A DNA stretch of 64,000 bases from Cenarchaeum sp. (GTDB lineage Archaea; Thermoproteota; Nitrososphaeria; Nitrososphaerales; Nitrosopumilaceae). Below the pieces are notes generated by a model, which was given only the letters and a program-made list of their open reading frames with translations, was not told the DNA's origin and ran no database searches. Numbering within the stretch: the first letter of the stretch is position 1; each line of letters opens with the position of its first letter. The position numbers and the translations under genes are program-made. Shown here piece after piece: positions 2,256 through 63,800 of the stretch. The DNA is taken from NCBI GenBank assembly GCA_965206845.1, contig OZ242221.1, forward strand, positions 544,001 through 608,000, written 5' to 3'.

Positions 2256-3008
2256 GTGAGCGCAGCACTGTTCAGCGTGGCGTACAGCTCGCAATTCATC
2301 AGGTTCGGCTCGATAGTCACAGTTGCAATAGCCGGCAGCATGCTGATACTTGCCGTAAGGGGCCGCAGCGCCATGGGCGCCACGATAACTGCCATCGGCG
2401 TTGCAACCATACTGATGAGCTCCATAATACAGGGCGATCTGGATCTGAAGACGGAGAACATCAAGGCGCACCTGTTCTGGTGGGATCAGCAGCCGCAGAA
2501 GATGCAGGCGCTGGAGGGATTTCCCACATGGGGCAAGATCTGGAGCCTCTCCACCGGAACCGTCTGCATCCTACTGGGCATGATATCTGCATACAGGCAC
2601 GGCATGATATCTGTAAGAAACAGGCTGCCCTTTGACTATCCGTATCCCGTATGGAAGAGCAGCCAGCAGGAGATCACGCAACATAGCGCAAGCTTGGTTC
2701 CACTGAAGAGTTTGCTGTCCCAGAGAGAGCGCCTCATGCTGGCCAGGTACAGAGATGTGATTCGTAATTAGCACGCAGGCACATTAGAGCACGATCTTTG
2801 GCATAATCATACGAAAGTTGCATGCTTTGGAGCGCACATCTGTAAGATTATGGGCATCGAAGACCCGATTCTTAATTGCGGATCATGTCTCAGGCTGATT
2901 CTGGTGATGATCGAGAACAGAAGATACCTGGTCAAAAAGGACGAGATGGTGCCAGAGGAATGCACCGTGATCAGAACCGCAGACGGCAAGTCGATCTGCG
3001 GCCTGTAG
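2256..3008 (+). pseudogene. Membrane protein gene interrupted by MITE copy 1
   Basis: Hydrophobic helices. Removing 2753-2893 restores ...LMLARY-RLILVMIENRRYLVKKDEMVPEECTVIRTADGKSICGL* (stop at 3006-3008). The frame is open upstream to 2175, so the true start is uncertain. Confidence 0.8.
2753..2890 (+). mobile_element. 138-bp MITE, copy 1
   Basis: 18-bp imperfect TIRs AGATGTGATTCGTAATTA / TAATTGCGGATCATGTCT. CAG duplicated at 2750-2752 and 2891-2893. Three substitutions relative to copies 2/4/5. Confidence 0.95.
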
Positions 3009-3108
3009 GCACCAAGGGCCGCATGGCAAGGAAAGACATATGTTCTGAGAGGGCAGGATCGGCGGCACGGACAGTCTATTTATTGGGTTTGGTGTTACCA
3101 TATCTGCG

Positions 3109-4122
3109 TTGAGGATTGCGGTAATGGGAATGGGAGTAGCAGGCTCGTACCTGATGGCCCGGCTGGCAGACTCGGAACACGAGGCCGTAGGGTATGAGAG
3201 AAGCACGGAGCAGAACCACGACTCGATATGCGCCTGGGGCACTATCAGGCCAGAGCTTGAAGGCTTTTGTAAAAAGGTCGGAAGGAACTTTGGCGACTTT
3301 ATGATCCATGATGGCAAGACCATGCATGTCAGGATGAACAGTAGTGTCAAGTTCGACATCGGCCTGCACGGCCTCTGCACTTACAACAAGCTGGGTCTGA
3401 TCAAGGACCTGATCAAGGACAGCGATGTAAGGTACGGCAAGGCGCCCAAGCTGGCGGAGCTGGAGGCAGAGTATGACATGATAGTTGACTGCACGGGATT
3501 TCATCGGAGCTATCTGCCAAAGCTTGAGAAGGACTTTTTCCTACCTACATATGAATACAAGGTAGAGTACGAGAACGGTGTGCCCTACGACGACTTTTAC
3601 ATCGAGCCGTTCCCCGGAATGTCGGGATATTTTTGGTACTTTCCGCTGGGGGAGCGGTGGGCCCACATCGGGGCAGGCGACTACTACAAGAACCACGTCA
3701 AGGCAACAAACGACTTTTTGAAGAAGCACGGCGGAAAGATACACAAGACAAAGGGCCGCCCCATAAGGCTGGCCACGCCGGGCCTGTGCAAGCCGTTCTA
3801 CAACGGAAAGGTGGTAGGAGTCGGCGAGTCCATCGGGACGGTGTACGCGCTTCTGGGCGAGGGAATAATTCCCAGCATGCAGTGCGTCGACATATTCCTA
3901 GACAACATGCACGATTTTGAGGCGTATGAGATGGCAGTTGACGAGCACTACAACGTATACAACAAGGTGTTCCGGTTTGTGCACGCCAAGATACACAAGG
4001 ACTTTAACATCATAAGATCCCTGCCGGACTTTATATCCATATTCAGGTACATGAAGAAGAACGAGGGCAGGTTTGGAATGGATATCAAGATAGGTGACCT
4101 CATCAAGGTGGCCAGGGCATAG
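3109..4122 (+). CDS. NAD(P)/FAD-dependent oxidoreductase, geranylgeranyl reductase-like family
   Basis: Motifs: N-terminal GMGVAG Rossmann, VDCTG, GYFWYFP and VGESIG...GEGI. Confidence 0.85.
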   Translation: MRIAVMGMGVAGSYLMARLADSEHEAVGYERSTEQNHDSICAWGTIRPELEGFCKKVGRNFGDFMIHDGKTMHVRMNSSVKFDIGLHGLCTYNKLGLIKDLIKDSDVRYGKAPKLAELEAEYDMIVDCTGFHRSYLPKLEKDFFLPTYEYKVEYENGVPYDDFYIEPFPGMSGYFWYFPLGERWAHIGAGDYYKNHVKATNDFLKKHGGKIHKTKGRPIRLATPGLCKPFYNGKVVGVGESIGTVYALLGEGIIPSMQCVDIFLDNMHDFEAYEMAVDEHYNVYNKVFRFVHAKIHKDFNIIRSLPDFISIFRYMKKNEGRFGMDIKIGDLIKVARA

Positions 4123-4229
4123 CAGAGATCAGCTGTTCGTCAGGATATGACTGAGCGCGGGCCAGGCGCCCACACCGTCATCGTTTACGCCCAAACCCGC
4201 ACGGAGCGGACAGAAGCATCCAAGCAGGC

Positions 4230-4850
4230 CTAGCTCCTCAGCTCGCCGGGGTTGTAGCTGTACGAGGCGCTCGAGTACGCCCTGCCGCCGTAGTACACGT
4301 GAATGTCATACTCACCAAGCTCCCGGAATACGGGATCCGATGCCAGAAAGCCGTACGAGCCGTCAGAGTTTGGCGGGATCTTTGCAATTGCCAGAACCCT
4401 GCCTGCCGAGTTGGAGATCACGATTCCCACCTCGTGGTCTTCCACCAGGTTGCTTACAAGGCCAAATATCATGATGTTGTCGCCACGACCGTACTGCTCC
4501 TTGTTGGTGTGCACCGATATGGTCAGGGCATCAGTTGCGTTAGTCATGCTCTGAATTGTTGCCTCGTGCTCTGCGATCTGGTCTCTCAGGGCCTGGTTTT
4601 CTATCTCCAGCAGTGCTACCTGGGGAACCGTTATCATGTCAGTCTCGATCATGAACTGGATGTTTGCCACCAGTCTCTGGTCATCCGCATCCCCCTGCGC
4701 CCAGGACAGTATGTTCTGCCGGATATAGTCCGGAATGGAGCTCTGAATCTGGGCAGATGCGGCAACCGTAACTGCCAATGTGGCAAATATCAGCAGGCAT
4801 ATGAACAGCAGGCGCGTACCTCTCAAGTGCACATAGTGTCTCACCATCAT
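4230..4850 (-). CDS. Secreted thaumarchaeal protein (signal peptide, IPxWI-type domain, coiled coil, Ig-like domain)
   Basis: Hydrophobic N-terminus. IPDYIRQNILSWAQGDADDQRLVANIQFMIE resembles the common Nitrosopumilaceae 'IP.WIK..A.WW..G.I.D..F...IQ.LI' domain. The ISVHTNKEQYGRGDNIMIFG segment starts an Ig-like domain. Confidence 0.75.
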   Translation of the reverse strand: MMVRHYVHLRGTRLLFICLLIFATLAVTVAASAQIQSSIPDYIRQNILSWAQGDADDQRLVANIQFMIETDMITVPQVALLEIENQALRDQIAEHEATIQSMTNATDALTISVHTNKEQYGRGDNIMIFGLVSNLVEDHEVGIVISNSAGRVLAIAKIPPNSDGSYGFLASDPVFRELGEYDIHVYYGGRAYSSASYSYNPGELRS

Positions 4851-5095
4851 ATATGAAATACGTGGTTAAAAAAAGATAATATCTGTTTTGTATGTCTGAT
4901 AATTCTGTAGCAATGTAGCTGTCGGCCAGGCGGATCTGCCATCGATCTTGTGCATACTAACAGGGAATATCCAGACCACCCGTGACCCCCATCACGCATG
5001 CAGGGGCCATCCCTGCCGCGCGTGCGACGGGACTGCACAGCAAGTGGCGCGGCTGCACGATCGGCGCACGTAAGGCAGAAGGCTGTCGGATTGGC

Positions 5096-5797: not shown

Positions 5798-5829
5798 ATC
5801 AAGTTATAACCCGCACGGTATTGTTATTA

Positions 5830-6174
5830 ATGTTGGGCGTCAAAGGCAAATACGCGGCGGCAACAGAGAGCAGGCGGTTTGTCTGGAAGGAGATAGTCTG
5901 GCCGCTGATACTGGAGGTAAACGATGTAGCCTTTACCTTGGAGCAGTACCAGGTAAAGCGCGACTACGTCTCAAGAAGGGACGGCATCAGCATCTACAGG
6001 CTCTCCCGCGGACTGGCATCCCTGCTGCAAAAGGGCCTGCTGAACAAGGAGAACAAGCTGTACTCGATCCACTACCGCCTCATCCCATACATGAGGCTCA
6101 AGGCCGAATGCGATTATGCCACGGCGCTAAACGAGACAAAGATGTGGCCAGTGGTGAAGATCGCACAGGGGTAG
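5830..6174 (+). CDS. Hypothetical protein, winged-helix-like
   Basis: Clean ORF divergent from the YkgJ gene. The LSRGLASLLQKGLLNKENKLYSI segment has a helix-wing pattern. Confidence 0.65.
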   Translation: MLGVKGKYAAATESRRFVWKEIVWPLILEVNDVAFTLEQYQVKRDYVSRRDGISIYRLSRGLASLLQKGLLNKENKLYSIHYRLIPYMRLKAECDYATALNETKMWPVVKIAQG

Positions 6175-6395
6175 GACAGGTAGTCCGGACAGCCATTTGC
6201 GGCTGTGTCCTAGAGACATAACCCCACAATCATCCGCCGTCGTCGCGTCGGTACGGGTATTCTTCGAATTCTTGGGATTGCGGTATTTTTCCCACATCTC
6301 CGGCTTCAAACGCTGTCCGAAACTGTAAAATCCCATCCGATCCAAGGGATGGTGCGCAGGCTCCCCTACGGGCGGCGCGGGTGTCTCCGCGCCGG

Positions 6396-7499
6396 TTATG
6401 CAGCCATTGCAGTGAGCGACTCGTGCGTGAGCCTGCCGCTTTTTACGTGCGATCGCGCGACTACCCCTATGTTGTAACAAATGATCCGGATTGCAACCTC
6501 TCGGTTCTGCCGGACGAGCCTCCTGCCCCGGAGGTGGTTCCCGTACATCTTCTTGATTGCCCCAAAGACGGCTTCGATTATGCTGCGCTGGTGGTACTCT
6601 GCCATGAACCTGTCAAGGTCGTCCCTGTGGGTCCGGGTCATCTCGCCCCAGGCTTGGCTGCCGCCGTTCTTGCAGGTCGTGTTGGATTTGGGCAGGATGC
6701 GGGGCGTCATGCCCATGCCGGCTATCGCGTCGCATATCAGTCTGGCTAGGTAGGCCGAGTCCAGGCAAAAGTTGCCGTTCCCGTCCGCAAGCCGGTCCAA
6801 CATGGGCCACATGCCGGTGATGTCGGAGGTGTATCCGTCGGTGACGTGATAGTCCAGGATGGCTCTGGTCGCGATATCGATGATGCTGTGAAGCTTGATC
6901 CACCCGCGCTTGGTCTTGGCCTGGCTGTGGCGGATGCTGAACCAGCGGACGAACCGGTTGCCTGAGTAGCCGGTGCTGTCCCCGGCCAGCGAACCGGCCA
7001 CGATGTCGCCTGTGATCCTCAGGTGAACCTCGCGCAGGTACGACTCGGGGATCAGGCCGTAGGCGCGCCATATGGTGCTCTTGGAGGGTATCCCGGACAG
7101 TCCGATCCTGCTGACAAGATCCGGGTGCATTCTGAGGCAGCCCACCATCTTCCTGTAGGTCTTCATCTCTGCTTCCATCATGATGCAGACAACGGCCATG
7201 GCCTTTGGCGGATAGGCGGTCATGCCGCCCAGTCCAGAGACATGATCCGCAATTAAGAATCGGGCCTTCGATGCCCATAATCTTACAGATGTGTGCTCCA
7301 AAGCATGCAACTTTCGTATGATTATGCCAAAGATCGTGCTCTAATATGCCTGCGTGCTAATTACGAATCACATCTCAGGTCTGGCTTGGTAGGGGTCACC
7401 CATCTCCTTGATGGTGTTCAATATGGTGCTCAGTATCAGGCCCGGCAGGTACTGCTGGACAATATTGAATGGTCGCTGATCGCGTCTTCCATCTGTCAT
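6396..7499 (-). pseudogene. IS5-family DDE transposase interrupted by MITE copy 2
   Basis: DDE motifs AGDSTG, CLDSAY and YHQRSIIEAVFGAIK. Excising 7238-7378 restores a 320-aa ORF MTDGRRDQRPFNIVQQ...DPYQARP-GLGGMTAYPP from ATG 7499. Confidence 0.92.
7238..7375 (-). mobile_element. 138-bp MITE, copy 2 (nested in the IS)
   Basis: Reverse orientation. CAG at 7235-7237 and 7376-7378. Identical to copies 4 and 5 by eye. Confidence 0.95.
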
Positions 7500-7618
7500 T
7501 GGCGGGGCCGCGATCCGCCGATCAATATACCCTGCTATTTAGAGATGATCTATATCTGTAGGACACAGCCGCCATTTGCAGAATAATTATATGGCAACCG
7601 GATTGCAACAGACACTGT

Positions 7619-7713: not shown

Positions 7714-7715
7714 CC

Positions 7716-8315: not shown

Positions 8316-8319
8316 TGCA

Positions 8320-8757: not shown

Positions 8758-8761
8758 AGCA

Positions 8762-23623: not shown

Positions 23624-23720
23624 TGCCGGAGGTGGGTTTCGAACCCACGACCTCCAGATTATGAGTGTTGCCTGTTTTTTGGAGAAGCTGGCACTCTAGG
23701 CCAGGCTGAGCTACTCCGGC
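23624..23720 (-). tRNA. Elongator tRNA-Met(CAT) with a 21-nt intron at non-canonical position 30/31 (23667-23687)
   Basis: Acceptor GCCGGAG/CTCCGGC. The anticodon arm CCAGA-CTCATAA-TCTGG forms only after removing CTTCTCCAAAAAACAGGCAAC. A BHB-like motif has a TGCC/GGCA central helix. Confidence 0.88.
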
Positions 23721-26579: not shown

Positions 26580-29087
26580 CTAGACCAGCGCCCGGTCATC
26601 TTGCGCGGGGGCCGTGAGCTTGGTCGGTTCGCCTGCGTTTATGCGCCGCAGTATCTCCAGCGCAGAGCACCTATGGAGAAAGTCGTTGTTGTTTCCGCAC
26701 CGGTATGAGAAGGTGCACCTGGGACAGCCCTTGCGGTGGCTGCAGGAGCAGTCTGCCGCTATGCGCATGCTTCGGGCCAGCGCCTCCTCCAGCCTGTCGT
26801 ATAGCGCCCAGCTGGCCCCGTTTCCGCCCACCGCCCCGTCGTACACGAATATGAGTCCCGAGGTGCCCAGGGAGATGCCGCCCAGATCCCTCGAGGCGCC
26901 GCCGGTGATCATGTTGCTCCCCTCTATTATGATGTGCTCGGCGGCATGGTATCCGCCGGCCTCCACGTACCCGGCATCCTCGGACTCTGCGATCGAGTCC
27001 AGCGGCCTTGGCGCGTGAAAGACGATCCCCTTTGTCACCAGATCGTACTCGAGGGGCTCATCCAGTGAGACCGCCTCTCCCTGATCCGCGTCCTGTCCCA
27101 GAGCGATCTTCAGGTACCCGCCAACGGTCTTTCTTATGCGCAGTCCGCAGAATGCAACCTCCATGCCAAAGACGCTTCGCGTCTCGTAGATGTCATCGAT
27201 CGTGGGCCTCTCCGAGGTCAGCGCCTTGGTGTAGTATGAATGGTCCTCTGGGATCCTCTGCAGGCGGGCGCTCATCCCGTCGGGATAGTCAAGTCCTGCG
27301 ACAAGGTATCTCCTTCCGGCAAGAAAGTAGATGGCTCCACTGTGTAGCTCCTCAAGCGCGGTGGGAAGGGCCCTGTGCCCCAGTCTTTTGCCGTCAAGCG
27401 TGATGTAGACCGAGCTGCCTATTCCGCGTATGTTGTACTCCCCCAGCAGTTTTTGCGCCTTGCGGCTCGGCACGTACAGGCTGCCTGCTCTCCGCAAGTT
27501 TCCCGCCCGTACCTGTTCTTGCAGCGTCGCATCGTGTCCCGGCATCTCACCTGCGCGGATGGGCCTGTCGCAGGCCATGGCCAGTATCTGAAGCCGTTCC
27601 ACGAAGGGGTTCTTGGGATCTATGTAGGCCTTCTCCACATCGGTAAAATAGTCTCCCGGGTGGTTGCCATAGTACTGCGAGATGGGGTCGTCCCCCAGTG
27701 CCAGGAACGCGTATCCCCGCTGGCCCTTCCGGGCTGCCCTGCCCATCCTCTGCATCAGCCGGTTGATTGGAACCGGGGAGGATATCACGCCGTCCACGCT
27801 GCCTATGTCGATTCCCAGCTCCAGTGTGGATGTAGAGGAGATGGCCTGCAGTCTCCCGCTGCGAAACTCGCTCTCCACCAGGTTTCTGTACCCGGGGTTC
27901 AATCCGGCCCTGTGCACCATGATGTTTATGCCGGCATTCTTTGCCTGCATGGCAAACAGCTCCACGCTCCGGTGCGTGTTGTTGAAGATTATGGTTCTGT
28001 GCCTGCCTTGTGTAAGCCTTTTTGCCACATCCACCATCAGGCTGCTCCGCTTTCGCAGGGTTGGAAGTATCATCGCAAACTCGATGCTGCCCCTCCTCCC
28101 GGAGCCGCAGACATGCCTCATCTCCGTGCCGAAGAGCCGCCGGCAGAACTCTGCCGCGTTGTCCAGCGTGGCCGACGCGGCGACAAACTGCATTCCTGCG
28201 GCGATTCTGCCCAGCCGCTTTATCACATAGTGCACGTTTGAGCCAAAGATTCCCGAGTATGTGTGCACCTCGTCTGCAACCAGAAACCTGGCCGTTCCCA
28301 GAAGCGACGCAAGTCCTGTTCGGTGGCACATATGGTAGTGGAGGACATCAAAGTTTGTGATCAGCATCTGTGGAGGGCGGTTCATGATCTTCCGCCGCTC
28401 GGCATCAGGCGTATCCCCGTCAAACACCTCTGCCCTGATCCCCAGCCTCTCTGCATACCTCCTGATCTTTGGAAGCTGGTCCCTGGCAAGGGCCTTTGTG
28501 GGGTACACCAGCAGCGCCAGAATCCCCTCCTGCAGGCCGCGTCCGGCGATACTCTGCAGGATTGGCACCACAAAGGCCTCGGTCTTGCCGGATGCCGTGG
28601 GCGACTCGATTACCACGTTGTCGCCGGCAATTATGCCGCGCACCGCCTCCTCCTGAAACCGGTAGAGGCGCTCTATTCCCGAGTCGGCCAGGCCCTGCAC
28701 TATGCCCGGGTTCAGTCCTAGGTCGTCCACGCGGGAGCCCATCTCCGGCGGGGGGCTGTCCATCCTGCGGTAGTCGGAGATGTAGTCCTTTTGGGACTGC
28801 AACACGGCCAGCGTGAGCTTGTCAGGCTTCAGGCTGCCGATCATCTCCCTTATCTCGGCCTCTGACCTGACCTTCCCTGCAGATACAGGGTCGGGATCAC
28901 CGGCATCCCTCTCTCCGATCTCCCCGCGATCAAACCTGTACAGAAAGTCTAGGTACACCTCGTCGTGGTTCCTGTTGTATTCCAGCACGGCCCCAAGGCC
29001 GCAGCCCGGGCACGACACCGTTGCCTTCCCGTCGGCCGGCCCGATATCCAACCTGGCTCTGCAGTCAGGACACAGAAATCTCTGCAA
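26580..29087 (-). CDS. DEAD/DEAH-box helicase with DUF1998 (Hrq1/SftH-like)
   Basis: Motifs: PTASGKT, DEVH, SAT, LELGIDIG and QRMGRAAR. N-terminal Zn finger and C-terminal CxC..GCPRC. Confidence 0.93.
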   Translation of the reverse strand: MQRFLCPDCRARLDIGPADGKATVSCPGCGLGAVLEYNRNHDEVYLDFLYRFDRGEIGERDAGDPDPVSAGKVRSEAEIREMIGSLKPDKLTLAVLQSQKDYISDYRRMDSPPPEMGSRVDDLGLNPGIVQGLADSGIERLYRFQEEAVRGIIAGDNVVIESPTASGKTEAFVVPILQSIAGRGLQEGILALLVYPTKALARDQLPKIRRYAERLGIRAEVFDGDTPDAERRKIMNRPPQMLITNFDVLHYHMCHRTGLASLLGTARFLVADEVHTYSGIFGSNVHYVIKRLGRIAAGMQFVAASATLDNAAEFCRRLFGTEMRHVCGSGRRGSIEFAMILPTLRKRSSLMVDVAKRLTQGRHRTIIFNNTHRSVELFAMQAKNAGINIMVHRAGLNPGYRNLVESEFRSGRLQAISSTSTLELGIDIGSVDGVISSPVPINRLMQRMGRAARKGQRGYAFLALGDDPISQYYGNHPGDYFTDVEKAYIDPKNPFVERLQILAMACDRPIRAGEMPGHDATLQEQVRAGNLRRAGSLYVPSRKAQKLLGEYNIRGIGSSVYITLDGKRLGHRALPTALEELHSGAIYFLAGRRYLVAGLDYPDGMSARLQRIPEDHSYYTKALTSERPTIDDIYETRSVFGMEVAFCGLRIRKTVGGYLKIALGQDADQGEAVSLDEPLEYDLVTKGIVFHAPRPLDSIAESEDAGYVEAGGYHAAEHIIIEGSNMITGGASRDLGGISLGTSGLIFVYDGAVGGNGASWALYDRLEEALARSMRIAADCSCSHRKGCPRCTFSYRCGNNNDFLHRCSALEILRRINAGEPTKLTAPAQDDRALV

Positions 29088-29328
29088 TGCATGGCATGCA
29101 TCATGCTCTGAATTTATTGTTTGGAGCCACGGTACGGAAAGGGAGGATCATATGCCTGACCCTGCAGGGAACAGGCCTTGTTCTGGCGACCCCGCCCACC
29201 CTGATCCTTGCGCGATGCAGCCATGTCCGCGCCAGCCGACGCGGCCGGTGTGCATGGCAGCGCCGCGATCGGCTGCCACCGTAGTCACGCATGCCTCTTT
29301 AATACCACACCGACAAAGGAGGATTGGA

Positions 29329-31476
29329 ATGCACGGCGCGCGGGATATTGTCGACAACGGGCTGCTGTTGGCAGATGAGGGGAAGCCGGAGGCACTGGAT
29401 CTCTACAACAGGGCAATCCAGCTGGATCCCGGCTTCTTCCCCGCTTATTTTCACAAGGGGGAGCTGCTGCATGATCTTGAAATGTATGGCAAGGCGGTAG
29501 AGTGCTTTGACAAAGCAATAGAGTTGAAGCCCAGCAATGTCACGGCGCATTTCAGAAAAGGACTGGCGCTGCATGAGATGGGGGACTATCCTGCGGCAGT
29601 AGAGAGCTTTGACACGGCAATAGAGCAGCATCCAAACAGCGCCATCATGCATGTCCAAAAGGGGCTATCCCTCTATGAGAATGAGGATTACCGTGCTGCC
29701 GTAAAGTGCTTTGACAGGTCGATATCCTTGGATCCAAACGACCCGTTTGCGTACGACATCAAGGGAAGGTCGCTGTATGAGCTGGAGGATCACAGGGGGG
29801 CAGTGGAGTGCTTTGACAGGTCACTCCATCTGGAACCGGACGACTCCCTCACGCACATAGATAGGGGAATGGCGCTGTGCGAGCTGGAAGACTACAGGTC
29901 CGCAATAGGAAGTTTTGACAGGGCAATATCCCTTGATCCAGATGATGCGAGCGCATACACCCACAAGGGAGAGGCGCTACTCGAGCTTGGGGAGTATGCG
30001 GCCGCTGTGAAGTGCTTTGACAGGTCGATATCTCTTGATCCAGGTGACGCAGGCGCATACATACACAAGGGAGAGGCGCTACACGAGCTTGGGGAGTATG
30101 CGGCCGCTGTGAAGTGCTTTGACAGGTCGATATCTCTTGATCCAGGTGACGCAGGCGCATACATCCACAAGGGGAGTTCCCTGCAAGAGCTGGAAAGCCA
30201 TGATGCCGCATTGAAGTGCTTTGAGAGAGCAATAGGACTGGAACCGGACAACAAGTATGCCCACCTAGAGAAGGGCATGTCCCTGAGCGATCAGGAAGAT
30301 TACCGCGCCGCCTTGGAGAGCATCGATGTGGCAATCGGCCTTGATCCAAGTGACTCGCTGGCGCACGGCTTCAAGGGAACGATCCTCCATGAGATGGAGG
30401 ACTACAAGGGTGCGGTGGAGAGCTTTGATGCGGCAATCAGGATTGAGGCAAATAATTCCTCCCATCACATGAACAGGGGAGCATCACTGCACGAGATGAG
30501 AGATTACAGTGGGGCGGTGGAGAGCTTTGATGCGGCAATCAGGCTGGATCCAAATGACGCCCACCTGCACTACAAAAAGGGGGAATCCCTGTACGGCTTT
30601 GGGGAATACGGCGCCGCCGTGAAGTGTTTTGATGCGGCAATCAGGATTGATCCAACAAATGCCCATGTGCACTGGATCAGGGGGGCTTCCCTGTATAAGA
30701 TGGAAGACCGCCCGGAGGCAATCAAGTGCTATGACGAGGCGCTCAGGATTGATCCAAAATACAGTCTTGCGCGCATCCTCAAGTCGGTCTGTCTTTTGGA
30801 TGTCGGCAGTCCGGAGGAGGCCCTGGAAGCACTGGAGGGCGTGGAGAACAAGGTGGGGGATCCCAGCATGTCGTGGGCCATACTCCACAAGGCAAAAGTC
30901 CTTTACGCCTTGGGCAGGCCGGACGGCGCCATTGCCAACCTGGGCATGATTGAGGATGGAGATCCGCTCTATGCCGACGCTCTACTTGAAAAGGGCATAA
31001 TCAATGACGAGTACTACGAGGTCAGCAGGGAGCAGGCCAAGCTTGATGAGGCCACACGCTGCTACAGTGCAGCCATGGCAGCAAGACCGGGCTTTGACGA
31101 ACTGCTGTACAAGAACGGACTGCTGTTCTACAAGTATGGCAGGACTGAGGATGCAGTGGAGAGCTTTAATGGCGCAATCAAGCTGAGGCCGATCTTTCCA
31201 GATGCCATAAATGCCATGGGAAGGGCGCTCAACGATCTGGGACGGCATGAGGACGCCATACAGTATCTCGAGGCGGCAATCAGGCTAAAGCCCGGCTTTG
31301 CAGAGGCCGTCTACAACAAGGCAGACATCATGCGCAGCATTGGCATGGTTGAAGAGTCCGCGGGGTTTCTTGACGAGGCGGTTCGGTTGGATCCCAGCCT
31401 TCGGAACCACGAGGGCATAAGGCGCATGTTGGACGAGAGGCCGGGGTTTAAGCGTAGAACTCGCGGCAAGAAATAG
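29329..31476 (+). CDS. Large TPR-repeat protein (~18 TPRs)
   Basis: Regular 34-aa repeats (HKGEALHELGEYAAAVKCFDRSISLDPGDAGAY). ATG 29329 follows TTTAATA and a GGAGG element. The ORF-track extension to 28813 overlaps the helicase. Confidence 0.93.
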   Translation: MHGARDIVDNGLLLADEGKPEALDLYNRAIQLDPGFFPAYFHKGELLHDLEMYGKAVECFDKAIELKPSNVTAHFRKGLALHEMGDYPAAVESFDTAIEQHPNSAIMHVQKGLSLYENEDYRAAVKCFDRSISLDPNDPFAYDIKGRSLYELEDHRGAVECFDRSLHLEPDDSLTHIDRGMALCELEDYRSAIGSFDRAISLDPDDASAYTHKGEALLELGEYAAAVKCFDRSISLDPGDAGAYIHKGEALHELGEYAAAVKCFDRSISLDPGDAGAYIHKGSSLQELESHDAALKCFERAIGLEPDNKYAHLEKGMSLSDQEDYRAALESIDVAIGLDPSDSLAHGFKGTILHEMEDYKGAVESFDAAIRIEANNSSHHMNRGASLHEMRDYSGAVESFDAAIRLDPNDAHLHYKKGESLYGFGEYGAAVKCFDAAIRIDPTNAHVHWIRGASLYKMEDRPEAIKCYDEALRIDPKYSLARILKSVCLLDVGSPEEALEALEGVENKVGDPSMSWAILHKAKVLYALGRPDGAIANLGMIEDGDPLYADALLEKGIINDEYYEVSREQAKLDEATRCYSAAMAARPGFDELLYKNGLLFYKYGRTEDAVESFNGAIKLRPIFPDAINAMGRALNDLGRHEDAIQYLEAAIRLKPGFAEAVYNKADIMRSIGMVEESAGFLDEAVRLDPSLRNHEGIRRMLDERPGFKRRTRGKK
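29951..30173 (+). repeat. Near-identical 102-bp tandem duplication (one TPR unit)
   Basis: 29962-30063 and 30064-30165 differ at only a couple of positions. Confidence 0.9.
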
Positions 31477-51130: not shown

Positions 51131-51153
51131 ATGGTTGGCTGATAAATATAACC

Positions 51154-55916: not shown

Positions 55917-56691
55917 CTCTCTTTGCAGCTTCCCTTGCAGACTCGTTTCCATATATGATGGCCGCCAGCGCCTCTACCATTCCAGGCGGATTCTTGTGGG
56001 CGAAGATGTTTCTGCCGTAGGTGACCCCCTTTGCCCCCGCACTCATGGCATCCTCTGTCATCTGTAGTATCTCCATGTCGGTCTCGGCCGTCGGCCCTCC
56101 GGCAATCACCACCGGAACCGGTGTGCTCTTTACTATTTTAGAGAACGAGTCCACATCCCCGGTGTACACCGTCTTTACAATGTCTGCGCCGCACTCGGCG
56201 CCAATCCTTGCCGCATGCGCCACGATCTCTGGATCGTGGGGATCCTTTACGTTCTCGCCTCTGGGATACATCATTGCCAGAAGTGGCATGTTCCACAGGT
56301 GGCACTGACCTGCCGTACGGCCCAGCTGCTCTAGCATCTCAGGCTCCTCCTTTCCGCCTATGTTGATGTGCAGTGACACCCCATCTGCCCCCAGTCTCAG
56401 CGCCTCCTCCACGGTGCCTGTGAGCATCTTCCTGTTGGGCGATGTGGATAGGGATGTGCTGCTGGAAAAATGCACCAGGACTCCGATCCTGGCAGGCTCG
56501 GGCATGGTTCTGATGATTCCCTTGTTGACTATAACGCTGGAGAGGCCGTGATCCTGGCACCGGTAGATTATCGAGTGCGGATCCTCCAGTCCCGGAATGG
56601 GCCCGTTTGAGATCCCATGGTCCATGGGGATGCAGAGCATCTTGCCGTCCTTCATAATGCGATCAAGTCTGATCTGGTGTCCGGTTACCAC
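55909..56691 (-). CDS. aroA': 2-amino-3,7-dideoxy-D-threo-hept-6-ulosonate synthase (AroA')
   Basis: Motifs: PMDHG, AMMYPRG, GADIVKT and IAGG. Heads the aro cluster. Confidence 0.92.
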
Positions 56692-57004
56692 AAGGAAGTG
56701 TTTTTTTTGCGCCCTATTAAAAATAACTAGTAGATGCCGTATGGTCCAGACACCGCCGCATAGCCCGTCCCCACATGTCCGGAGGTCAAAAAACGCCTCC
56801 GCATGCCATGGTCCCCGTCTGCCGCCCGGATCTCAGTGCAGGGTCGTTCTTGAAGGCCGGCGCTAGGATGCGCCTCGCGCACCTCGTTGCAGGCGCGTCC
56901 ATGCGAGCCGTAAGCTGGGTTTTTGGTCAAAATACCGCCCACCGCATGCCGGCAGATACGCTCAAAGATTAAATAATCTGCGGAGGTGGATCATAACCAG
57001 TCAG

Positions 57005-58126
57005 TTGAACCAAATTGCAAAGCAGATTCACTCCAGCGACATAAGGGACATACTTGAAAACTCCCTTGGCGGCAACAGGCCGGATCGGGCCGACTGCCTG
57101 CGCCTGCTGGAGTCCGACGATGTGCAGCTCATGGGGATGGCCTCAGGTCACATAACCAAGAAGAGGTTTGGCATAACAGCCTCCTTTGTGAATAACATAA
57201 TTCTCAACTATACCAACGTCTGCATCACCGACTGCAAGTTCTGCGCATTCTACAGGTCCCCCGGCGCCGATGGATCGTACACCCTGACGCTTGATGAGAT
57301 CGAGACGCGGGTAAAAACCGCCCGGGACATGTTTGGGATCCGGCAGGTGCTCATCCAAGGCGGGCATAATCCAAACCTGGGGATAGAGTACTACGAGAGC
57401 GCCTTTGGGATGATCAGGGCAAAGTTTCCCGAGGTAGGCGTTCACGGCCTGTCGCCGTCAGAGATCGACATGATAGCCAAGGTTGAAAAATGCTCGACCG
57501 CCGAGGTGATCTCGCGCCTGGCAGAGGCTGGGCTCCAGTCCGTTCCGGGAGCCGGGGCGGAGATCCTGGTCGACTCGGTAAAGGATGTGATCAGCCCCAA
57601 GAAGATAGACAGCGCCGCATGGTTAAGGATAATGGAGGAGGCCCACATGGCGGGCCTGCCCTCGTCTGCCACCATGATGTACGGACACGTAGAGTCAAAC
57701 CGGGACATTGCGGAGCACTTTGGCAGGATTGCAGAGCTGCAGGAGAAGACCCATGGGTTCATGGCATTTATCCCCTGGAGCTTTGAGCCAAACAACACAC
57801 TCATGCAGAAGGAGGATCCCACAACCCACGGCTCCGGCGGCACCAGGCTGCTCAGGATGATTGCGATATCACGGCTGGTCTTTGACGGCCTTATTGAGCA
57901 CCTGCAGTCTTCCTGGCTTACCAACGGAATCGGAATGGCCCAGCTGGCCCTGCAGTACGGCGCCGACGATTTTGGCGGCACGCTGATAGGCGAAGAGGTG
58001 GTGTCGTGCACCGGCGCCCGATCCACAGAGCTCACCGACGCAAAGATAGTCGAGGCCATCTCCCAGATAGGCTACAGGGCAGTGGAGCGAGACAACTTTT
58101 ACAATACCGTCTCTGTGCGCCAGTAA
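57005..58126 (+). CDS. mqnC: CofH/MqnC-family radical SAM, probable cyclic dehypoxanthine futalosine synthase
   Basis: Motifs: NYTNVCITDCKFCAF, PGAGAEIL and ATMMYGH. Neighbour of ubiD. Confidence 0.85.
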   Translation: MNQIAKQIHSSDIRDILENSLGGNRPDRADCLRLLESDDVQLMGMASGHITKKRFGITASFVNNIILNYTNVCITDCKFCAFYRSPGADGSYTLTLDEIETRVKTARDMFGIRQVLIQGGHNPNLGIEYYESAFGMIRAKFPEVGVHGLSPSEIDMIAKVEKCSTAEVISRLAEAGLQSVPGAGAEILVDSVKDVISPKKIDSAAWLRIMEEAHMAGLPSSATMMYGHVESNRDIAEHFGRIAELQEKTHGFMAFIPWSFEPNNTLMQKEDPTTHGSGGTRLLRMIAISRLVFDGLIEHLQSSWLTNGIGMAQLALQYGADDFGGTLIGEEVVSCTGARSTELTDAKIVEAISQIGYRAVERDNFYNTVSVRQ

Positions 58127-58158
58127 GCCGTTCGGGTTCGGCACGCAACTGTTACCAG

Positions 58159-58296
58159 AGATGTGATTCGTAATTAGCACGCAGGCACATTAGAGCACGA
58201 TCTTTGGCATAACCATACGAAAGTTGCATGCTTTGGAGCACACATCTGTAAGATTATGGGCATCGAAGGCCCGATTCTTAATTGCGGATCATGTCT
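58159..58296 (+). mobile_element. 138-bp MITE, copy 3
   Basis: CAG at 58156-58158 and 58297-58299. Two substitutions relative to copies 2/4/5. Confidence 0.95.
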
Positions 58297-58300
58297 CAGG

Positions 58301-59749
58301 TCAGAGCCCGTACGTGCTCCACCGCGAGTCCACCAAGCCCCTAGTTCGGTCATCCACTGTAACCTTCTCCTGCACCTCTCTTGTGAATCCCTCCTGTATC
58401 GTCTTCTGCGTTGCGTCTATTCCCAGCTTGGAGCCTAGGTTCACCAGCGGGGATGCAGGATCCAGCGTGTCGGTGGGGGTGTTGTTGATTATGGTTGTGT
58501 CCCTGGCGGGATCTGCCCTAGTGGTGATGGCCCAGATCACGTCGTTGATGTCCTGCACATCCACATCGTCGTCCACCACGATGAACATCTTTGTCAGCGC
58601 CAGCTGTCCCGTGCCCCACAGACCCATCATCACCTTCTTTGCCTGTCCGGGATAGCTCTTCTTGATGGAGATGATTGCCATTCCCTGAAACCATCCCGCC
58701 GCGGGCATTGCAAAGTCCACAACCTCCGGGTGGAACATTTGGATGAGGGGCAGGAACGAGCGCTCGATGACCTTGCCCACGTACGCATCCTCCAGTATCG
58801 GCTTGCCCACCACGGTGGTCAGGTACACCGGGTTCTCCCTGTGCATTGCCCCGGTGAGCGTAAAGGTCGGATACTGCTCCACCGGGGTGTAGTAACCCGT
58901 GTGATCGCCAAAGGGCCCCTCGTCGCGCAGGTCTGCGGGATCCACGTACCCCTCCAGCACGATCTCCGCGTTTGCCGGAACCTCCAGATCTATGGTTTTG
59001 CACCTCACAGTGCTGATTCCCTTCTTGCGCACTATTCCCGAGAAGAGGTACTTGTCAAGCCCCTCTGGAACCGGTGCAATCCCAGAGAATACGGTAGACG
59101 GCTCTCCTCCGATAATTATTGCCGCAGGGATTCTCTCCCCTTTTGCTTTTGATATCTCGCTGTGCTGCGCCCCGCGCTTGTGCTTCTGCCAGTGCATTAT
59201 GACGTGTTGGCCGTCCACTATCTGCATCCGGTACACGCCCAGGTTCCTCACGCCCGTCTCCGGATGCCTTGTTGCCACAAGGCCCAGCGTGATGAACCGT
59301 CCTGCGTCCCCGACCCATGTCTTTAGGATCGGCAGACCGTCAAAGGTCGGATTCTTCTGCACCACCTTGGTTACCGGACCGCTGCTCACCGGTTTGGGAA
59401 ATGACTCGCTCATCTTTGATAGCTGGGGGAGTTTTTTGAGCTTTCCCAAGAGTCCGGCCGGCATGTCCATCCGGGTCATCTCCACAATTCTGCTACCGAT
59501 CTCTGTAAAGTCCCGGGTCTCCAGCGCAATCTCAAGCCTCCTCATGGTGCCAAAGGTGTTTCCCAGCACCGGCATGTCATAGCCCTTCACATCCTCAAAG
59601 AGTACCGCCGGTCCCTGTGCGTACATGGTTCTCCGGAGAATCTCTGCAATCTCCAGGTCTGCGTCAACCTGCGTTTTGACACGCTTCAGCTCGCCCGCCT
59701 CCTCTAGTATTCCTACAAGCTCCTGCACATCCCCGATTGGCACAAACAC
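58301..59749 (-). CDS. ubiD: UbiD-family menaquinone biosynthesis decarboxylase (MqnL-like)
   Basis: Motifs: RNLGVYRMQ, EGPFGDHTGYY, KSYPGQAKKVMMGLWG and DTLD. Confidence 0.93.
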   Translation of the reverse strand: MFVPIGDVQELVGILEEAGELKRVKTQVDADLEIAEILRRTMYAQGPAVLFEDVKGYDMPVLGNTFGTMRRLEIALETRDFTEIGSRIVEMTRMDMPAGLLGKLKKLPQLSKMSESFPKPVSSGPVTKVVQKNPTFDGLPILKTWVGDAGRFITLGLVATRHPETGVRNLGVYRMQIVDGQHVIMHWQKHKRGAQHSEISKAKGERIPAAIIIGGEPSTVFSGIAPVPEGLDKYLFSGIVRKKGISTVRCKTIDLEVPANAEIVLEGYVDPADLRDEGPFGDHTGYYTPVEQYPTFTLTGAMHRENPVYLTTVVGKPILEDAYVGKVIERSFLPLIQMFHPEVVDFAMPAAGWFQGMAIISIKKSYPGQAKKVMMGLWGTGQLALTKMFIVVDDDVDVQDINDVIWAITTRADPARDTTIINNTPTDTLDPASPLVNLGSKLGIDATQKTIQEGFTREVQEKVTVDDRTRGLVDSRWSTYGL

Positions 59750-59791
59750 CGATCTGTTGCATTGCAGTATAAGCTTAACGTACAGGCCCAG

Positions 59792-59929
59792 AGATGTGAT
59801 TCGTAATTAGCACGCAGGCATATTAGAGCACGATCTTTGGCATAATCATACGAAAGTTGCATGCTTTGGAGCACACATCTGTAAGATTATGGGCATCGAA
59901 GGCCCGATTCTTAATTGCGGATCATGTCT
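59792..59929 (+). mobile_element. 138-bp MITE, copy 4
   Basis: CAG at 59789-59791 and 59930-59932. Confidence 0.95.
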
Positions 59930-60215
59930 CAGCAGAGGTCGTGGCTGCCCGCACGGCTCTGTGGCGTCATTGGGCCTGTCTGCATGATCCCCGTGCCGCG
60001 CCGACAGGGCATATGATCCTGCGGCGCAATGGGATTCCAGACATGCATCGACGGGGCAAAAGGTGCCATGGACGAGATCAATTGCCGCATCATGGCGGAC
60101 GTGAAGACTCACCAGGATGTGCAAGCCCGTGCCTGAATGGGAGGCAAGGCGGCATCACACAGGTTTCATTTACAAAACGTTTTACAGATCTGCTACGATA
60201 CGCAAGTAGATAATA

Positions 60216-60446
60216 TTGACTGGAAAAAAGTGCGCCGTGTGTAGCGGTATGGGCACGATTGAGCTTCTTGGCAGCGAGTGTCCCTTCTGCAACGGCACGG
60301 GCGAGCATTCGAAGATTGCCGAATCGTACTTCAAGTCACACATATGCCAGTGCGTCTTTCTGGACAGAAAGCGATGCCCGCTGTGCAAAAAGAAGTGCCA
60401 TCACGACACGCCCAACAAGCCAAAGATCCTCATAGAGCCGATGTAG
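60216..60446 (+). CDS. Small Cys/His-rich zinc-binding protein
   Basis: Two CxxCxGxG motifs (DnaJ-type) plus HICQC...CPLC...CHH. Confidence 0.8.
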   Translation: MTGKKCAVCSGMGTIELLGSECPFCNGTGEHSKIAESYFKSHICQCVFLDRKRCPLCKKKCHHDTPNKPKILIEPM

Positions 60447-60824
60447 CTACGACATGGGTGGCAGCTCGTTCTTCCTGTCATGGCCTCCGGAGCCAAACTT
60501 GCAGTAAAAGCACAGATCCGACTGCATGTGGTTCAGTATGTGCACCTTGATTGCTCCCAGCTTTAACGCGATTTTGGTAAGCATCTTGTACTTGAACGGC
60601 ATGGATGGGATCACCTCGTCCATGTAGACGCGGTAGTGATCCGGACAGAACCTGAGGGTAATCCTTGCCGGTTCCTTTCCCTTCTCGTTTACCTGCTTTG
60701 TAAACTTGATCTGCTCACGGATGTACTCGTGCTTGGGACAGGGGCAGTCCTTTCCATATGGATGCTTGTACGCAGGCGTGTTCTTCCAGTCAAAATCCGG
60801 GAACTCTTTTTCAAAATCGTCCAT
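60447..60824 (-). CDS. Hypothetical Cys/His-containing protein
   Basis: Motifs CPCPKH, FCPDH and CFYC. TTATAA box upstream. Confidence 0.8.
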   Translation of the reverse strand: MDDFEKEFPDFDWKNTPAYKHPYGKDCPCPKHEYIREQIKFTKQVNEKGKEPARITLRFCPDHYRVYMDEVIPSMPFKYKMLTKIALKLGAIKVHILNHMQSDLCFYCKFGSGGHDRKNELPPMS

Positions 60825-61464
60825 TATTACTTAAGCGTACTTGATGTTTATAAGATTTGGTTGTTTGGCGATCCGCCTGCCACTTGGTAGCGCCACTCTG
60901 TGCCCGTGTGACAAGTCGACCACCCAAACTTGGGATCCAAAGCAAGTCCCCGCGCTGAGACGGGCGTGAGGACCACAGCCGTACACGCACGTGTCCTAAT
61001 GTGGAGATGGTGTGAAGCCACGCGCGGCACCACATAAAATCCCTGCAGCCCATCCCCCGTCCGGCACCGCCCCGTCTGCCTCCCGATAGTGACTTCCCTT
61101 CTTGCAGGGTGTCCCGTAGGTATCTGCGTCCCCATGCCCGATCCGCGATCCCTCAGCGCGTGGAGGCACTTGCATGGCTAGTGGCGGCCCCCACTCCCTC
61201 TCATCCACAGAATATGACGCATGCTGGGTGGCCGGGTTTTTCACTGACGGGTTTCTTTCCTGCGTCGCCTGTATTTTTCGTGGCAGCCGTCCCGGCACTC
61301 CCACCCGTTCTTGCTCTTCCACCACATTCCAACAAAATTTTGCCTGTTCTCCTGTCAGATCGAGGCGGATGCAGTGATCTTGGACCCGATCGGGGCGGCA
61401 TTCTGGCGAATATGACACCACATAACAAAATGTAAATAAACTATACATTCAGAGTAGTTACCAT

Positions 61465-62508
61465 ATGGCAACAAAAAGCAAGTCAAGTTCCAGAGCAACA
61501 AAGTCCAGAGCAACCTCCAGAGCAACAAAGCCCAGAGCAACAAAGCCCAGAGCAACCTCCCGGACAGTAAAGCCCAGAGCTACCGCCAGAGCAACAAAGC
61601 CCAGAGCAGCCCCCAAAGTAACAAAGAGAGATCTAGAGGACAAGATTTCCCGGCTTGAGACGATACTAATGGAATTGTCTGCCAGCGTGAACGCAAAACA
61701 GGCAGCGGAGGCAAAACCGAAGCCAGCAGAGACAAAGCCGAAGCCAGCAGAAGTAAAGCCGAAGCCAGCAGAGGTGGCACCGAAGCCCAAGTCGCTTCCC
61801 AAGGTGTCCAAGCCGGCAGAGGTGGCACCGAAGCCCAAGTCGCTTCCCAAGGTGTCCAAGCCGGCAGAGGCAAAGCCGAAGCCAGCACCAAAGCCCGCAA
61901 CAAAGAAGGCAGATCTTCCAGCAACCATCAGCGACGCACTAGAGCATGCCTACTCGAACGCAGCAATGACCGATACGCACGCCTACAAGCAGAAGGTGCC
62001 AGGATACTCACCGTCAGGAAACAGGTACTATGTCAGACTGCACGCGCCGGAAGGCTCGGCCGCAATAGAAAGCTGGCATGCCCAAAAGGCAAAAGTGCCC
62101 GGCTACACGCAACCCTCAAACCAGTACTTTGCAACAAGACAGAGACTGGCATGGCACCAGCCGACAAAGAGGTTTACCGCATACGGCATGAAGATTCAGG
62201 GCGTATCCGAGACTGCAAAAGCACAGACACAGCAGGCTCCACCTCCACCGCCAGAAGCAAGCGCTCCACCACCACAGCCCACACAGAAGGGCTCCAAGCA
62301 GAGCGAACTGGAGGCATACGAAGCAGAATACCTGAAGAAACTCGAGCTAGCAAAGCAGCAACGGGCCAAGGCAAGACAGCAACAGGCAGAACCAAAGCCC
62401 GCAGCAAAGCCAAAGGCCGGAGCACTCCCCAAGAGAACCAAGCCCGCCGAACCGCCAAAACCTGCTGCACCAAAACAGTCTAGTGGCAAACTACCAAAGG
62501 GTTTCTAA
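61465..62508 (+). CDS. Low-complexity Lys/Pro/Ala-rich repeat protein with a histone-H1-like basic N-terminus
   Basis: About 7 RAT(K/S)(P/S) units, a short coiled coil, PKPAE repeats, a 48-bp perfect duplication, a twice-repeated 'QK...VPGY...N.Y' module and terminal LPK motifs. Confidence 0.8.
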   Translation: MATKSKSSSRATKSRATSRATKPRATKPRATSRTVKPRATARATKPRAAPKVTKRDLEDKISRLETILMELSASVNAKQAAEAKPKPAETKPKPAEVKPKPAEVAPKPKSLPKVSKPAEVAPKPKSLPKVSKPAEAKPKPAPKPATKKADLPATISDALEHAYSNAAMTDTHAYKQKVPGYSPSGNRYYVRLHAPEGSAAIESWHAQKAKVPGYTQPSNQYFATRQRLAWHQPTKRFTAYGMKIQGVSETAKAQTQQAPPPPPEASAPPPQPTQKGSKQSELEAYEAEYLKKLELAKQQRAKARQQQAEPKPAAKPKAGALPKRTKPAEPPKPAAPKQSSGKLPKGF

Positions 62509-62526
62509 CCCACCACAATTTTATTT

Positions 62527-62985
62527 TTAATTTGCGAACATTCCCAGCACCTGCTCTGAATGACCTGCAGGTTTTACCTTTGCAAATATCTTGAAGATTT
62601 TGCCGCTCTCGTCAACAAGAAACGTGCTGCGGACGACGCCCATGTACTCCCGGCCCATGAACTTCTTCTTCGCCCAGACCCCAAATTTTTGGGACACCTG
62701 CTTTTCCGTGTCCGACAGCAGCGGAAAGCGGATTCCCATCTTGTCGCAGAACTTTCTATGGGATCTGGTATCATCGGGGCTGATTCCGATTACCTCGATG
62801 CCGGCTTCTCTGAATCTTTCATAGTTTTTTGCAAACTCGTCTGCCTCCGTGGTGCACCCAGGCGTAAAGTCCCTTGGATAAAAGTAGATCACGTATTTTT
62901 GGCCTGCAAGATCAGATGAACTGACCAGCTTTCCGTCTGCATCCTGCAGTTCAAAAGATGGAACAGGCTCGCCCTCGCTTATCAT
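62527..62985 (-). CDS. bcp: Peroxiredoxin Bcp
   Basis: Motifs: YFYPRDFTPGCTTEA and RSTFLVD. Confidence 0.95.
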   Translation of the reverse strand: MISEGEPVPSFELQDADGKLVSSSDLAGQKYVIYFYPRDFTPGCTTEADEFAKNYERFREAGIEVIGISPDDTRSHRKFCDKMGIRFPLLSDTEKQVSQKFGVWAKKKFMGREYMGVVRSTFLVDESGKIFKIFAKVKPAGHSEQVLGMFAN

Positions 62986-63047
62986 GGATGCCGTGCACTA
63001 CAGCCCTCATAAATTATTTCGTACCGCGGTATCTGAAGGGTGCCGCG

Positions 63048-63383
63048 CTACCTTATCGGGCTTCCCGGAGGGGCGCTCTCGCCTGCCTCCAGCCAGAAGG
63101 GCACGCCATCCACATCCGCTGCAAGAAGCATGGCCTCTGACTCGATTCCGGCCACCTTCTTTGGCTCCAGATTTACAATCGCGATGACCCTCCTCCCCAT
63201 CATCTCTTCCGGGGTGCAGTGTTGGGCACCGCCGATGATCACGTTGCGCTCTTCGTTTCCTATGTCTACGGTGCCGCGCATGATACGGGTCTTGCCTGGG
63301 ATGGGCTCCGCTGCGATCACCCTTGCAACCCGGATATCCAGGCTGCCAAACGTGCTGTAGGGTACGCGCTCCACAGGTGCCAT
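63048..63383 (-). CDS. tRNA-binding OB-fold protein (Trbp111/CsaA/MetRS C-terminal)
   Basis: Motif LDIRVARV...VNLEPKKVAGIESEAMLLA. Start MAPV at 63383. Confidence 0.9.
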   Translation of the reverse strand: MAPVERVPYSTFGSLDIRVARVIAAEPIPGKTRIMRGTVDIGNEERNVIIGGAQHCTPEEMMGRRVIAIVNLEPKKVAGIESEAMLLAADVDGVPFWLEAGESAPPGSPIR

Positions 63384-63524
63384 ACCACGTCTGGATATAA
63401 AACTGATTTCAGGCTGGATCCATACCGGGTCGCCTGCTGCATCGAGTAATGAACAAGGATTATCTCGGATGCGCGTCTTTGTGCCTGAATGAGGAGGAAG
63501 CATGGCAGCATGCCGGAACTGCAG

Positions 63525-63662
63525 AGACATGATCCGCAATTAAGAATCGGGCCTTCGATGCCCATAATCTTACAGATGTGTGCTCCAAAGCATGCAACTT
63601 TCGTATGATTATGCCAAAGATCGTGCTCTAATATGCCTGCGTGCTAATTACGAATCACATCT
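63525..63662 (-). mobile_element. 138-bp MITE, copy 5
   Basis: Reverse orientation. CAG at 63522-63524 and 63663-63665. Confidence 0.95.
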
Positions 63663-63800
63663 CAGGTGGCCCATGCCCACATGTTCAGACACGCCTGTAG
63701 GCTGGACACGGATCATACAAAACATGGGGAGAGCTGGTCAGCCAGGATGGCAAAAAACAGACAACTAAATATAATTATACAGTTAGAGCGAAATCATAGC

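Follow-up and report, generated by a model that had tools for sequence, protein, structure and literature searches.

The archaeon Cenarchaeum sp. (Nitrosopumilaceae) carries a family of 138-bp repeats, here named MITE-1, which is best explained as a miniature inverted-repeat transposable element (MITE) moved in trans by a DDE transposase of the IS5/PIF-Harbinger-ISL2EU ("PHIS") type. The family was noticed in a 64-kb stretch of assembly GCA_965206845.1 (contig OZ242221.1, bases 544001-608000), which is called the window below. The genome is a single contig of 1,649,950 bp with 57.1% G+C, and its sequence occurs in sponge metatranscriptome runs. Thirty-two copies of MITE-1 are present, the family is still polymorphic, and a 1110-bp insertion sequence, IS_a, is the likeliest resident source of the transposase. 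We put the probability of this explanation as a whole at roughly 85%. It builds on direct observations of the anatomy of the element, its copy number, its precise insertion with target duplication, its presence or absence between strains, and an insertion sequence that has related ends and makes the same duplication. Positions are those of the window unless the genome is named, and a copy is called by its first base.

In the proposed mechanism, MITE-1 would depend on a transposase acting in trans, which would recognize terminal inverted repeats of about 18-20 bp with the consensus AGAnnTGATyCGyAATTA. The enzyme would make 3-bp staggered cuts at the weakly palindromic target w-c-CWG-g-w, giving a 3-bp duplication. 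The host is an insertion-sequence-rich, sponge-associated Nitrosopumilaceae archaeon in which MITE-1 has amplified in several very young sublineages, and the copy of IS_a with an intact 320-aa open reading frame (ORF) is the most likely resident source of the enzyme.

Anatomy of MITE-1

A repeat search and a five-way alignment identified five copies of one 138-bp repeat in the window, of which three are on the + strand and two on the - strand (Table 1). The shared sequence is sharply bounded, by AGATGTG... at one edge and ...CATGTCT at the opposite one. Copies 7238, 59792, and 63525 are identical, copy 2753 differs at three positions, and copy 58159 differs at two. The inverted ends are 18 bp long and imperfect, with 14 of 18 positions matching, and are kept in all 32 copies of the genome with at most two changes each. 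Each window copy is bordered by a 3-bp direct repeat, CAG or CTG according to orientation, and the reconstructed targets are ACAGG, CCAGG, CCAGG, CCAGC, and GCAGG. At least one stop occurs in each of the six reading frames, so the element has no coding capacity, and its G+C content is 43%. An earlier sequence-only reading of the window had listed the five copies with their positions, the 18-bp ends, the stops in six frames, and the five targets, and all of these were recovered as stated by the alignment and the frame check; its division into three identical copies and two with 2-3 substitutions also agrees with the comparison of copies.

The motif TAATTA or TTAATT lies at both ends of MITE-1, 14-21 nt from the tip, as in copy 59792 (59792-59929), and could represent candidate outward-facing TATA-like boxes.

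Copy Number, Target Preference, and Age

Searching the genome with blastn returned 31 full-length copies of MITE-1 at 92.8-100% identity, and the 32nd (genome 1009302-1009439) has two changes in its right terminus. A perfect 3-bp duplication borders 29 of the 32 copies, the chance of which is 1 in 64 per copy. By type, 24 duplications are CAG/CTG, 3 are CTT/AAG, and 2 are CAT/ATG, and three copies have flanks that differ by 1-2 bases. The triplet CWG makes up 4.5% of the trinucleotides of the genome, and its use at 24 of 32 sites corresponds to a binomial p of ~4e-26. Pooling the targets of both strands gave a logo with the weak palindrome w-c-C-W-G-g-w; at least a half-site, CCWG or CWGG, is found in 23 of the 32 targets, and the full CCWGG in 4. 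The sequence-only reading had proposed a genome-wide count and a target logo as a check on a strict CWG duplication with a cCWGg preference. The preference was recovered and widens to the palindrome above; strictness holds for all five window copies but not for the genome, where CWG is a preferred target only.

The copies fall into very similar groups. Nine are identical and form the 30T sublineage, eight are identical and share 82G and 111A, four equal the consensus, and three share four changes. Among the variants, 23 are transitions and 2 are transversions, with a mean of 1.9 differences per copy. The recent burst suspected from the window is thus borne out by the groups of nine, eight, and four identical copies, together with the absences between strains described below.

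Two inverted pairs of MITE-1 were observed at genome 1008275-1009439 and 1465077-1466287, each with ~0.9 kb between its members, and the second pair encloses an insertion sequence. Copies 1009302, 1465077, and 1466150 have their own matching duplications (CTG, CTG, and CAG, respectively), and copy 1008275 has unmatched flanks (ATG/CTG). Since both members of the second pair have duplications of their own, this pair looks like two independent insertions and not like a composite moved as a unit.

Under a crude longest-ORF gene model, many copies lie at most ~100 nt upstream of predicted starts. Targeting of promoter edges was considered as an explanation and rejected: in the readable cases, judged by eye, the distance to the nearest downstream TATA-like box ranges from ~17 to ~70 nt with no fixed register.

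Filled and Empty Sites

The exact pairing of filled and empty sites supports MITE-1 as a mobile non-autonomous element. To look for paralogous empty sites, the two flanks of every blastn copy (31 in all) were joined and searched against the genome. For six of the 32 copies the surroundings proved repetitive, in most cases another insertion sequence, and the paralogues have the uninterrupted site. Five of these sites contain a single target triplet; in the sixth, the paralogues read AAA vs AAG in the filled copy. Copy 7238 is one example. It is nested in an IS903-like insertion sequence, three paralogues of which (genome 302579, 487754, and 50659) are empty with a single CAG.

Empty sites were also found in relatives. 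Copy 2753 lies inside a conserved ORF, ~40 codons short of its stop (codon 165 of 203 in the crude gene model), and the exact orthologous site is empty in the same-genus genome G001, whose ORF reads through. The spacer that holds copy 58159 measures 67-84 bp in G001 and in G043, a metagenome-assembled genome (MAG) labelled Nitrosopumilus sp., and lacks the element in both. A search of 40 relatives recovered no 138-bp element from the other 39, and the one further match, in G014, covers the first 21 nt only. Empty CAG sites and insertion polymorphism had been named in advance as a check on mobility, and both were found: within the genome, in the same-genus relative, in a strain of ~99% identity, and in contigs from other studies.

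The ORF split by copy 2753 occupies 2256-2771 and 2891-3020 and has no Pfam match. Its tail beyond the insertion, the last ~40 codons, includes a conserved Cys, and the gene is whole in G001.

An origin of the repeats from assembly error or chance is the least credible of the explanations considered, with next to no probability: the 32 copies are 93-100% identical and have defined ends in unique flanks, and the element occurs also in independent assemblies and in contigs of several studies. Hardly more probable is an identity as a structured RNA or a regulatory element in dispersed copies, or as a REP/REPIN-like hairpin that a RAYT-type HUH enzyme would have spread. In its favor, the RNA of the + strand folds with its ends paired, and all four end mismatches are compatible with G-U pairing on that strand only. 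However, having all four on one strand has a chance of ~1 in 8, the fold reaches z-scores of only -1.95 and -1.32, and it is the inverted ends that supply most of its energy. At the Rfam gathering threshold, nothing in the window matches apart from one tRNA (23624-23720). The copies sit inside genes and other insertion sequences, and the 3-bp duplication in 29 of 32 copies together with exact filled and empty pairs are what DDE transposition leaves behind and REPIN spread does not.

Polymorphism Between Strains and Samples

Other carriers of MITE-1 were sought with its 21-base left end in a scan that covered a single genome of each species. The full element, 97-99% identical, was found in five records: G043, two contigs of G041 (a MAG labelled "Poribacteria"), and one contig each of G042 and G044 (MAGs labelled "Dehalococcoidia"). 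Four full copies are present in G041 and one in G043. The contigs of G042 and G044 (L028, contig C2 of G042, and L029, contig C4 of G044) are ~99% identical to the genome over stretches of 2-6 kb. Because of this identity to an archaeal genome, the two "Dehalococcoidia" contigs are regarded as DNA of a close strain of the archaeon that was mis-binned. In L029, the site of genome copy 1140577 is empty and has a single ATG, and L028 and L029 each carry MITE-1 at sites that are empty in this genome.

The same alternation was seen in sequencing runs. Fifteen runs of 6 studies contain 90% or more of the words sampled from window 56500-64000. Three DNA runs from three studies (X1, X5, and X12), whose contigs show 0-3 differences per 1.5 kb, were compared. 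In all three, contigs join 58155 to 58297 and also 63521 to 63663, skipping in each case exactly 141 bp, which is the element plus one triplet (138 + 3), with sides of 255. These joints have a 3-nt ambiguity that equals the duplication, and their depth is like that of the flanking contigs. At copy 59792, contigs of X5 and X12 enter the element for 25 bases, to 59817, which indicates that the site is filled there, and X1 has one weak joint from 59788 to 59930 with a side of 30. As contigs drop rare variants, these joints show that empty alleles exist and do not give their frequency; the assembly may stem from one of the three runs. In the RNA run X18, the bins with copies 59792 and 63525 have no cover, and the sole contig at 58297 crosses the empty form. 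Taken together, a comparison with other strains or samples was possible for four genome copies, and three of these are missing in at least one.

IS_a, a Candidate Partner

A search of the genome for the end motif found paired ends 1110 bp apart, which define IS_a. Its ends are AGAACTGATTCGTAATTA / AGAAGTGATCCGTTATTA, and three copies (Table 1) and a 96-bp right-end remnant are present. The element encodes a single 320-aa ORF, and other frames are unsupported. This ORF is intact in one copy, has a stop at codon 23 in another, and in the remaining one carries an insertion of a second MITE exactly at its ATG. Its product matches DDE_Tnp_4 (PF13359) with 98.5 bits (cut-off 24.8) and HTH_Tnp_4 (PF13613) with 40.8 bits (cut-off 27), and also matches DDE_Tnp_1 of Pfam. 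Residues D140, D228, and E274 are invariant in all 12 aligned homologues (48-100% identity), and from their motif context (DxSEQ, DrGY, E-x3-R-x2-K) we take them to be the DDE triad. The best NCBIfam match is "IS5 family transposase"; the protein stands outside the named NCBIfam IS5 equivalogs, as both models score below their cut-offs (NF033581, 89.3 vs 140; NF033580, 28.6 vs 110).

Beyond IS_a, the genome has one other DDE_Tnp_4 match over the cut-off, in a decayed and distant copy, and a fifth match (genome 22432-22827) falls under it; matches to DDE_Tnp_1 number 44. At E <= 1e-20, 22 of the 151 Nitrosopumilaceae genomes, belonging to 9 of the 27 genera, have a transposase of the IS_a family, counting distant relatives at 26-31% identity. 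None of 67 members inspected in three transposase clusters is named, and the sole member of a fourth has a placeholder only. The sequence-only reading had placed the autonomous partner outside the window. IS_a does lie there, makes a CWG duplication, and encodes a transposase of the IS5/PIF-Harbinger type, but its ends are similar to those of MITE-1 and not identical.

Two side observations concern the IS_a copies themselves. The 137-bp MITE at the ATG of the third copy (genome 1513923-1514059) has the duplication ATG, and the ORF keeps its start and loses what lay upstream; one MITE may thereby be silencing the transposase source of its own family. In addition, copies 674977-676086 and 1513832-1515081 are in inverted orientation, and their unmatched flanks would match if exchanged, which fits an inversion of ~838 kb by recombination between the two copies. 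GC skew was tried as a test of this inversion, and its signal was too weak.

Which Transposase Moves MITE-1

We infer that the IS_a transposase, or a close relative, moves MITE-1 by cut-and-paste. The left ends of IS_a and MITE-1 have in common the terminal AGA and positions 6-20, so that 16 of 18 positions match and only 4-5 differ. Positions 4-5 vary among IS_a, IS41 (an insertion sequence described below), an insertion sequence of G014, MITE-1, and the second MITE family, MITE-2. Since these positions vary in every member of the group, the difference is taken to be tolerated, and the resident transposase is therefore thought to act on MITE-1. The insertion sequence of G014 is identical to MITE-1 over its first 21 nt and makes 3-bp duplications of ATG or CTG.

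Several points weigh against IS_a as the source. On the left, the ends of IS_a and MITE-1 disagree at positions 4-5; on the right, they disagree at four positions (4, 5, 13, and 14), leaving 14 of 18 matching. IS41 fits MITE-1 better: its ends are AGATGTGATTCACAATTA / AGACATGATCCGTAATTA, and the right end matches at 26 of 30 nt. About 90 internal bases of MITE-1 resemble neither IS_a nor IS41. The three copies of IS_a are ~2% apart, which makes them older than the youngest MITE sublineages. Finally, a G+C content of 43% in a genome of 57% fits an origin elsewhere. A simple deletion derivative was among the origins considered for MITE-1 and was rejected, as the interior matches none of IS_a, the G014 insertion sequence, and IS41.

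An alternative keeps the kind of element and changes the mobilizer. The transposase would come from an element of the IS41 type with matching ends, present in part of the population or recently lost, and the copies in this genome might be stranded. IS41 and MITE-1 are alike in their asymmetric termini, AGATG... / AGACA..., and the two occur together in G041 and G043. Neither this genome nor the contigs of G042 and G044 yielded a copy of IS41, the transposase of which shares 72% identity with the IS_a enzyme. Against this, three genome copies have no counterpart in one or more of the other strains or samples and are thus very recent insertions in a lineage where only IS_a is seen, and the mismatched positions 4-5 may not matter for recognition. 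We consider an IS41-type mobilizer unlikely, though a serious candidate, and prefer IS_a or a close relative as the resident source.

Wider Family and Possible Horizontal Movement

MITE-1 has relatives in the same genome. MITE-2, 137 bp long and ~73% identical to MITE-1, is represented by three copies identical to one another, a fourth that has diverged, and several fragments. Three further, shorter elements (89-91 bp) have the same type of ends; two of them have CTG duplications and one has unmatched CGG/CAG flanks. The presence of these shorter elements and of MITE-2 implies that the family has long been resident in the lineage.

The syntenic housekeeping genes of G043 are 72-75% identical in DNA to those of the genome, and MITE-1 is 97-99% identical there. 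Its low G+C content and this identity in a diverged genome point to horizontal movement among sponge-associated relatives. We tentatively suggest, at somewhat less than even odds, that MITE-1 moved horizontally between sponge-associated Nitrosopumilaceae genera or species and is cross-mobilized here by a transposase 72% identical to that of its original partner. If true, MITE-1 would be a natural example of a MITE that spread horizontally and was then adopted by the diverged transposase of an archaeal symbiont, and its course could be traced strain by strain across host sponges. In exact-match scans, which are weak evidence, an internal 25-mer of MITE-1 had no match in viral_contigs and none in metagenome_contigs.

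The "Poribacteria" contigs of G041 (C4 and C8; L025, L026, and L043-L046) hold MITE-1, IS41, and many tblastx stretches that are 50-94% protein-identical to the genome, and by this likeness they are probably mis-binned archaeal DNA. The marker genes scanned in G041, a phosphate ABC-transporter permease (PstA) and a weak, below-cut-off PhoU-like match, do not decide their origin.

Coordinates and Other Features of the Window

The copies of MITE-1 in the window, the insertion sequence that hosts one of them, and the copies of IS_a are collected in Table 1. The boundaries of the host insertion sequence come from an alignment of four paralogues and are uncertain by 1-2 bp. Its transposase has a DDE_Tnp_1 domain and a DUF772 match slightly under the Pfam cut-off, and the element is unrelated to the candidate partner of MITE-1. 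That the insertion sequence of the window has other ends than MITE-1 and a 9-bp duplication had been remarked from the sequence, and this is how it was found.

Table 1. Copies of MITE-1 in the window, the insertion sequence that hosts one of them, and copies of IS_a in the genome.
Feature	Position	Strand	Duplication or flanks	Remarks
MITE-1 copy	2753-2890	+	CAG at 2750-2752 and 2891-2893	82G/111A sublineage
MITE-1 copy	7238-7375	-	CAG on + strand	30T sublineage; nested in transposase gene of IS903-like insertion sequence
MITE-1 copy	58159-58296	+	CAG	55C variant; between 3' ends of radical-SAM CofH/MqnC-like and UbiD-family genes
MITE-1 copy	59792-59929	+	CAG	30T sublineage; 42 nt upstream of UbiD-family ORF start at 59749
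MITE-1 copy	63525-63662	-	CAG on + strand	30T sublineage; 5' edge of tRNA-binding-domain protein gene
Host insertion sequence, IS903-like	~6201-7570	-	9 bp, GCCATTTGC	1231 bp minus MITE; ends GGCTGTGTCC...
IS_a copy 1	genome 23265-24374		CTG/CTG	320-aa ORF intact
IS_a copy 2	genome 674977-676086		CTG/CAG	
IS_a copy 3	genome 1513832-1515081		CAG/CTG	second MITE (1513923-1514059) nested

Three other repeats were observed in the window. An ORF at 61465-62508 is a run of short repeats in tandem with a high content of Q, P, E, A, and K (families D4, D6, and D8), and contigs of other runs show a 15-bp deletion and a 69-bp skip in it. In the RNA run X18, no other part of the stretch reaches its summed contig depth of 258-520, contig depth being a poor measure of expression. 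A long ORF at 28813-31476 is made of 102-nt (34-residue) repeats in at least 14 units (families D1 and D5), and the period of 34 residues suggests TPR-like repeats. Two direct repeats of 300 nt (D3), at 509-808 and 1404-1703, are 90% identical and lie 895 nt apart.

Meaning and Comparison With Known Systems

MITE-1 has been caught in the act: there are 32 copies in 1.65 Mb, one conserved gene or more and several insertion sequences are interrupted by them, and near-identical strains from several sequencing studies differ in which copies they have. The insertions can serve as fine-scale strain markers for a widespread sponge symbiont. MITE-1 and the insertion sequence are small enough for a heterologous transposition assay, and the use of CWG vs the TWA of PIF/Harbinger offers a handle on how this clan of transposases reads its target. 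A caution for binning also follows, as contigs of the archaeon are found in MAGs labelled Dehalococcoidia and probably also in one labelled Poribacteria.

No description of MITEs in ammonia-oxidizing Thaumarchaeota was found in the searchable literature, ISfinder being outside the scope of the search, and the sequence-only reading had likewise been aware of no such family there. A survey of thaumarchaeal mobile elements reports 244 insertion sequences of 13 families (PMC6563490), and in its main text the words MITE and miniature do not occur.

Compared with known systems, MITE-1 is closest in kind to the Tourist MITEs of PIF-Harbinger, such as mPing with Ping/Pong in rice. Both are small, gene-less, and have terminal inverted repeats, and both are mobilized in trans, which for MITE-1 is the conclusion argued above. 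Both make a 3-bp duplication at a palindromic N-W-N' target and belong with transposases of the PIF/Harbinger-IS5 clan, both may match the partner at the ends only, and in both the insertions are polymorphic between close lineages. The target of Tourist is given as TWA (PMC12595863), and canonical Harbinger elements are described as making 3-bp duplications and are grouped with the IS5 family (PMC12730594). Unlike these, MITE-1 has CWG as its target and an archaeal host, and its candidate partner is a 1.1-kb element with one ORF and no second, Myb-like ORF.

IS_a in turn resembles the insertion sequences of the IS5 family, which occurs in bacteria and archaea, includes the groups IS5, IS427, IS1031, IS903, and ISL2, and has given rise to MITEs. 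It has in common with them a DDE transposase of ~320 aa with an N-terminal helix-turn-helix, an element length of ~1.1 kb, short inverted ends, and a short duplication, although it scores under the cut-off of the NCBIfam equivalog. The 3-bp groups of IS5 prefer TNA-like targets. Other archaeal MITEs, such as SM1-SM4 of Sulfolobus, are non-coding, measure 90-170 bp, have inverted ends and duplications, and occur in multiple near-identical copies, often near genes. MITE-1 differs from them in the group of its likely transposase and in the length of its duplication, which is 3 bp. Set beside these systems, MITE-1 is an ordinary kind of element that is unusually well documented as recently mobile.

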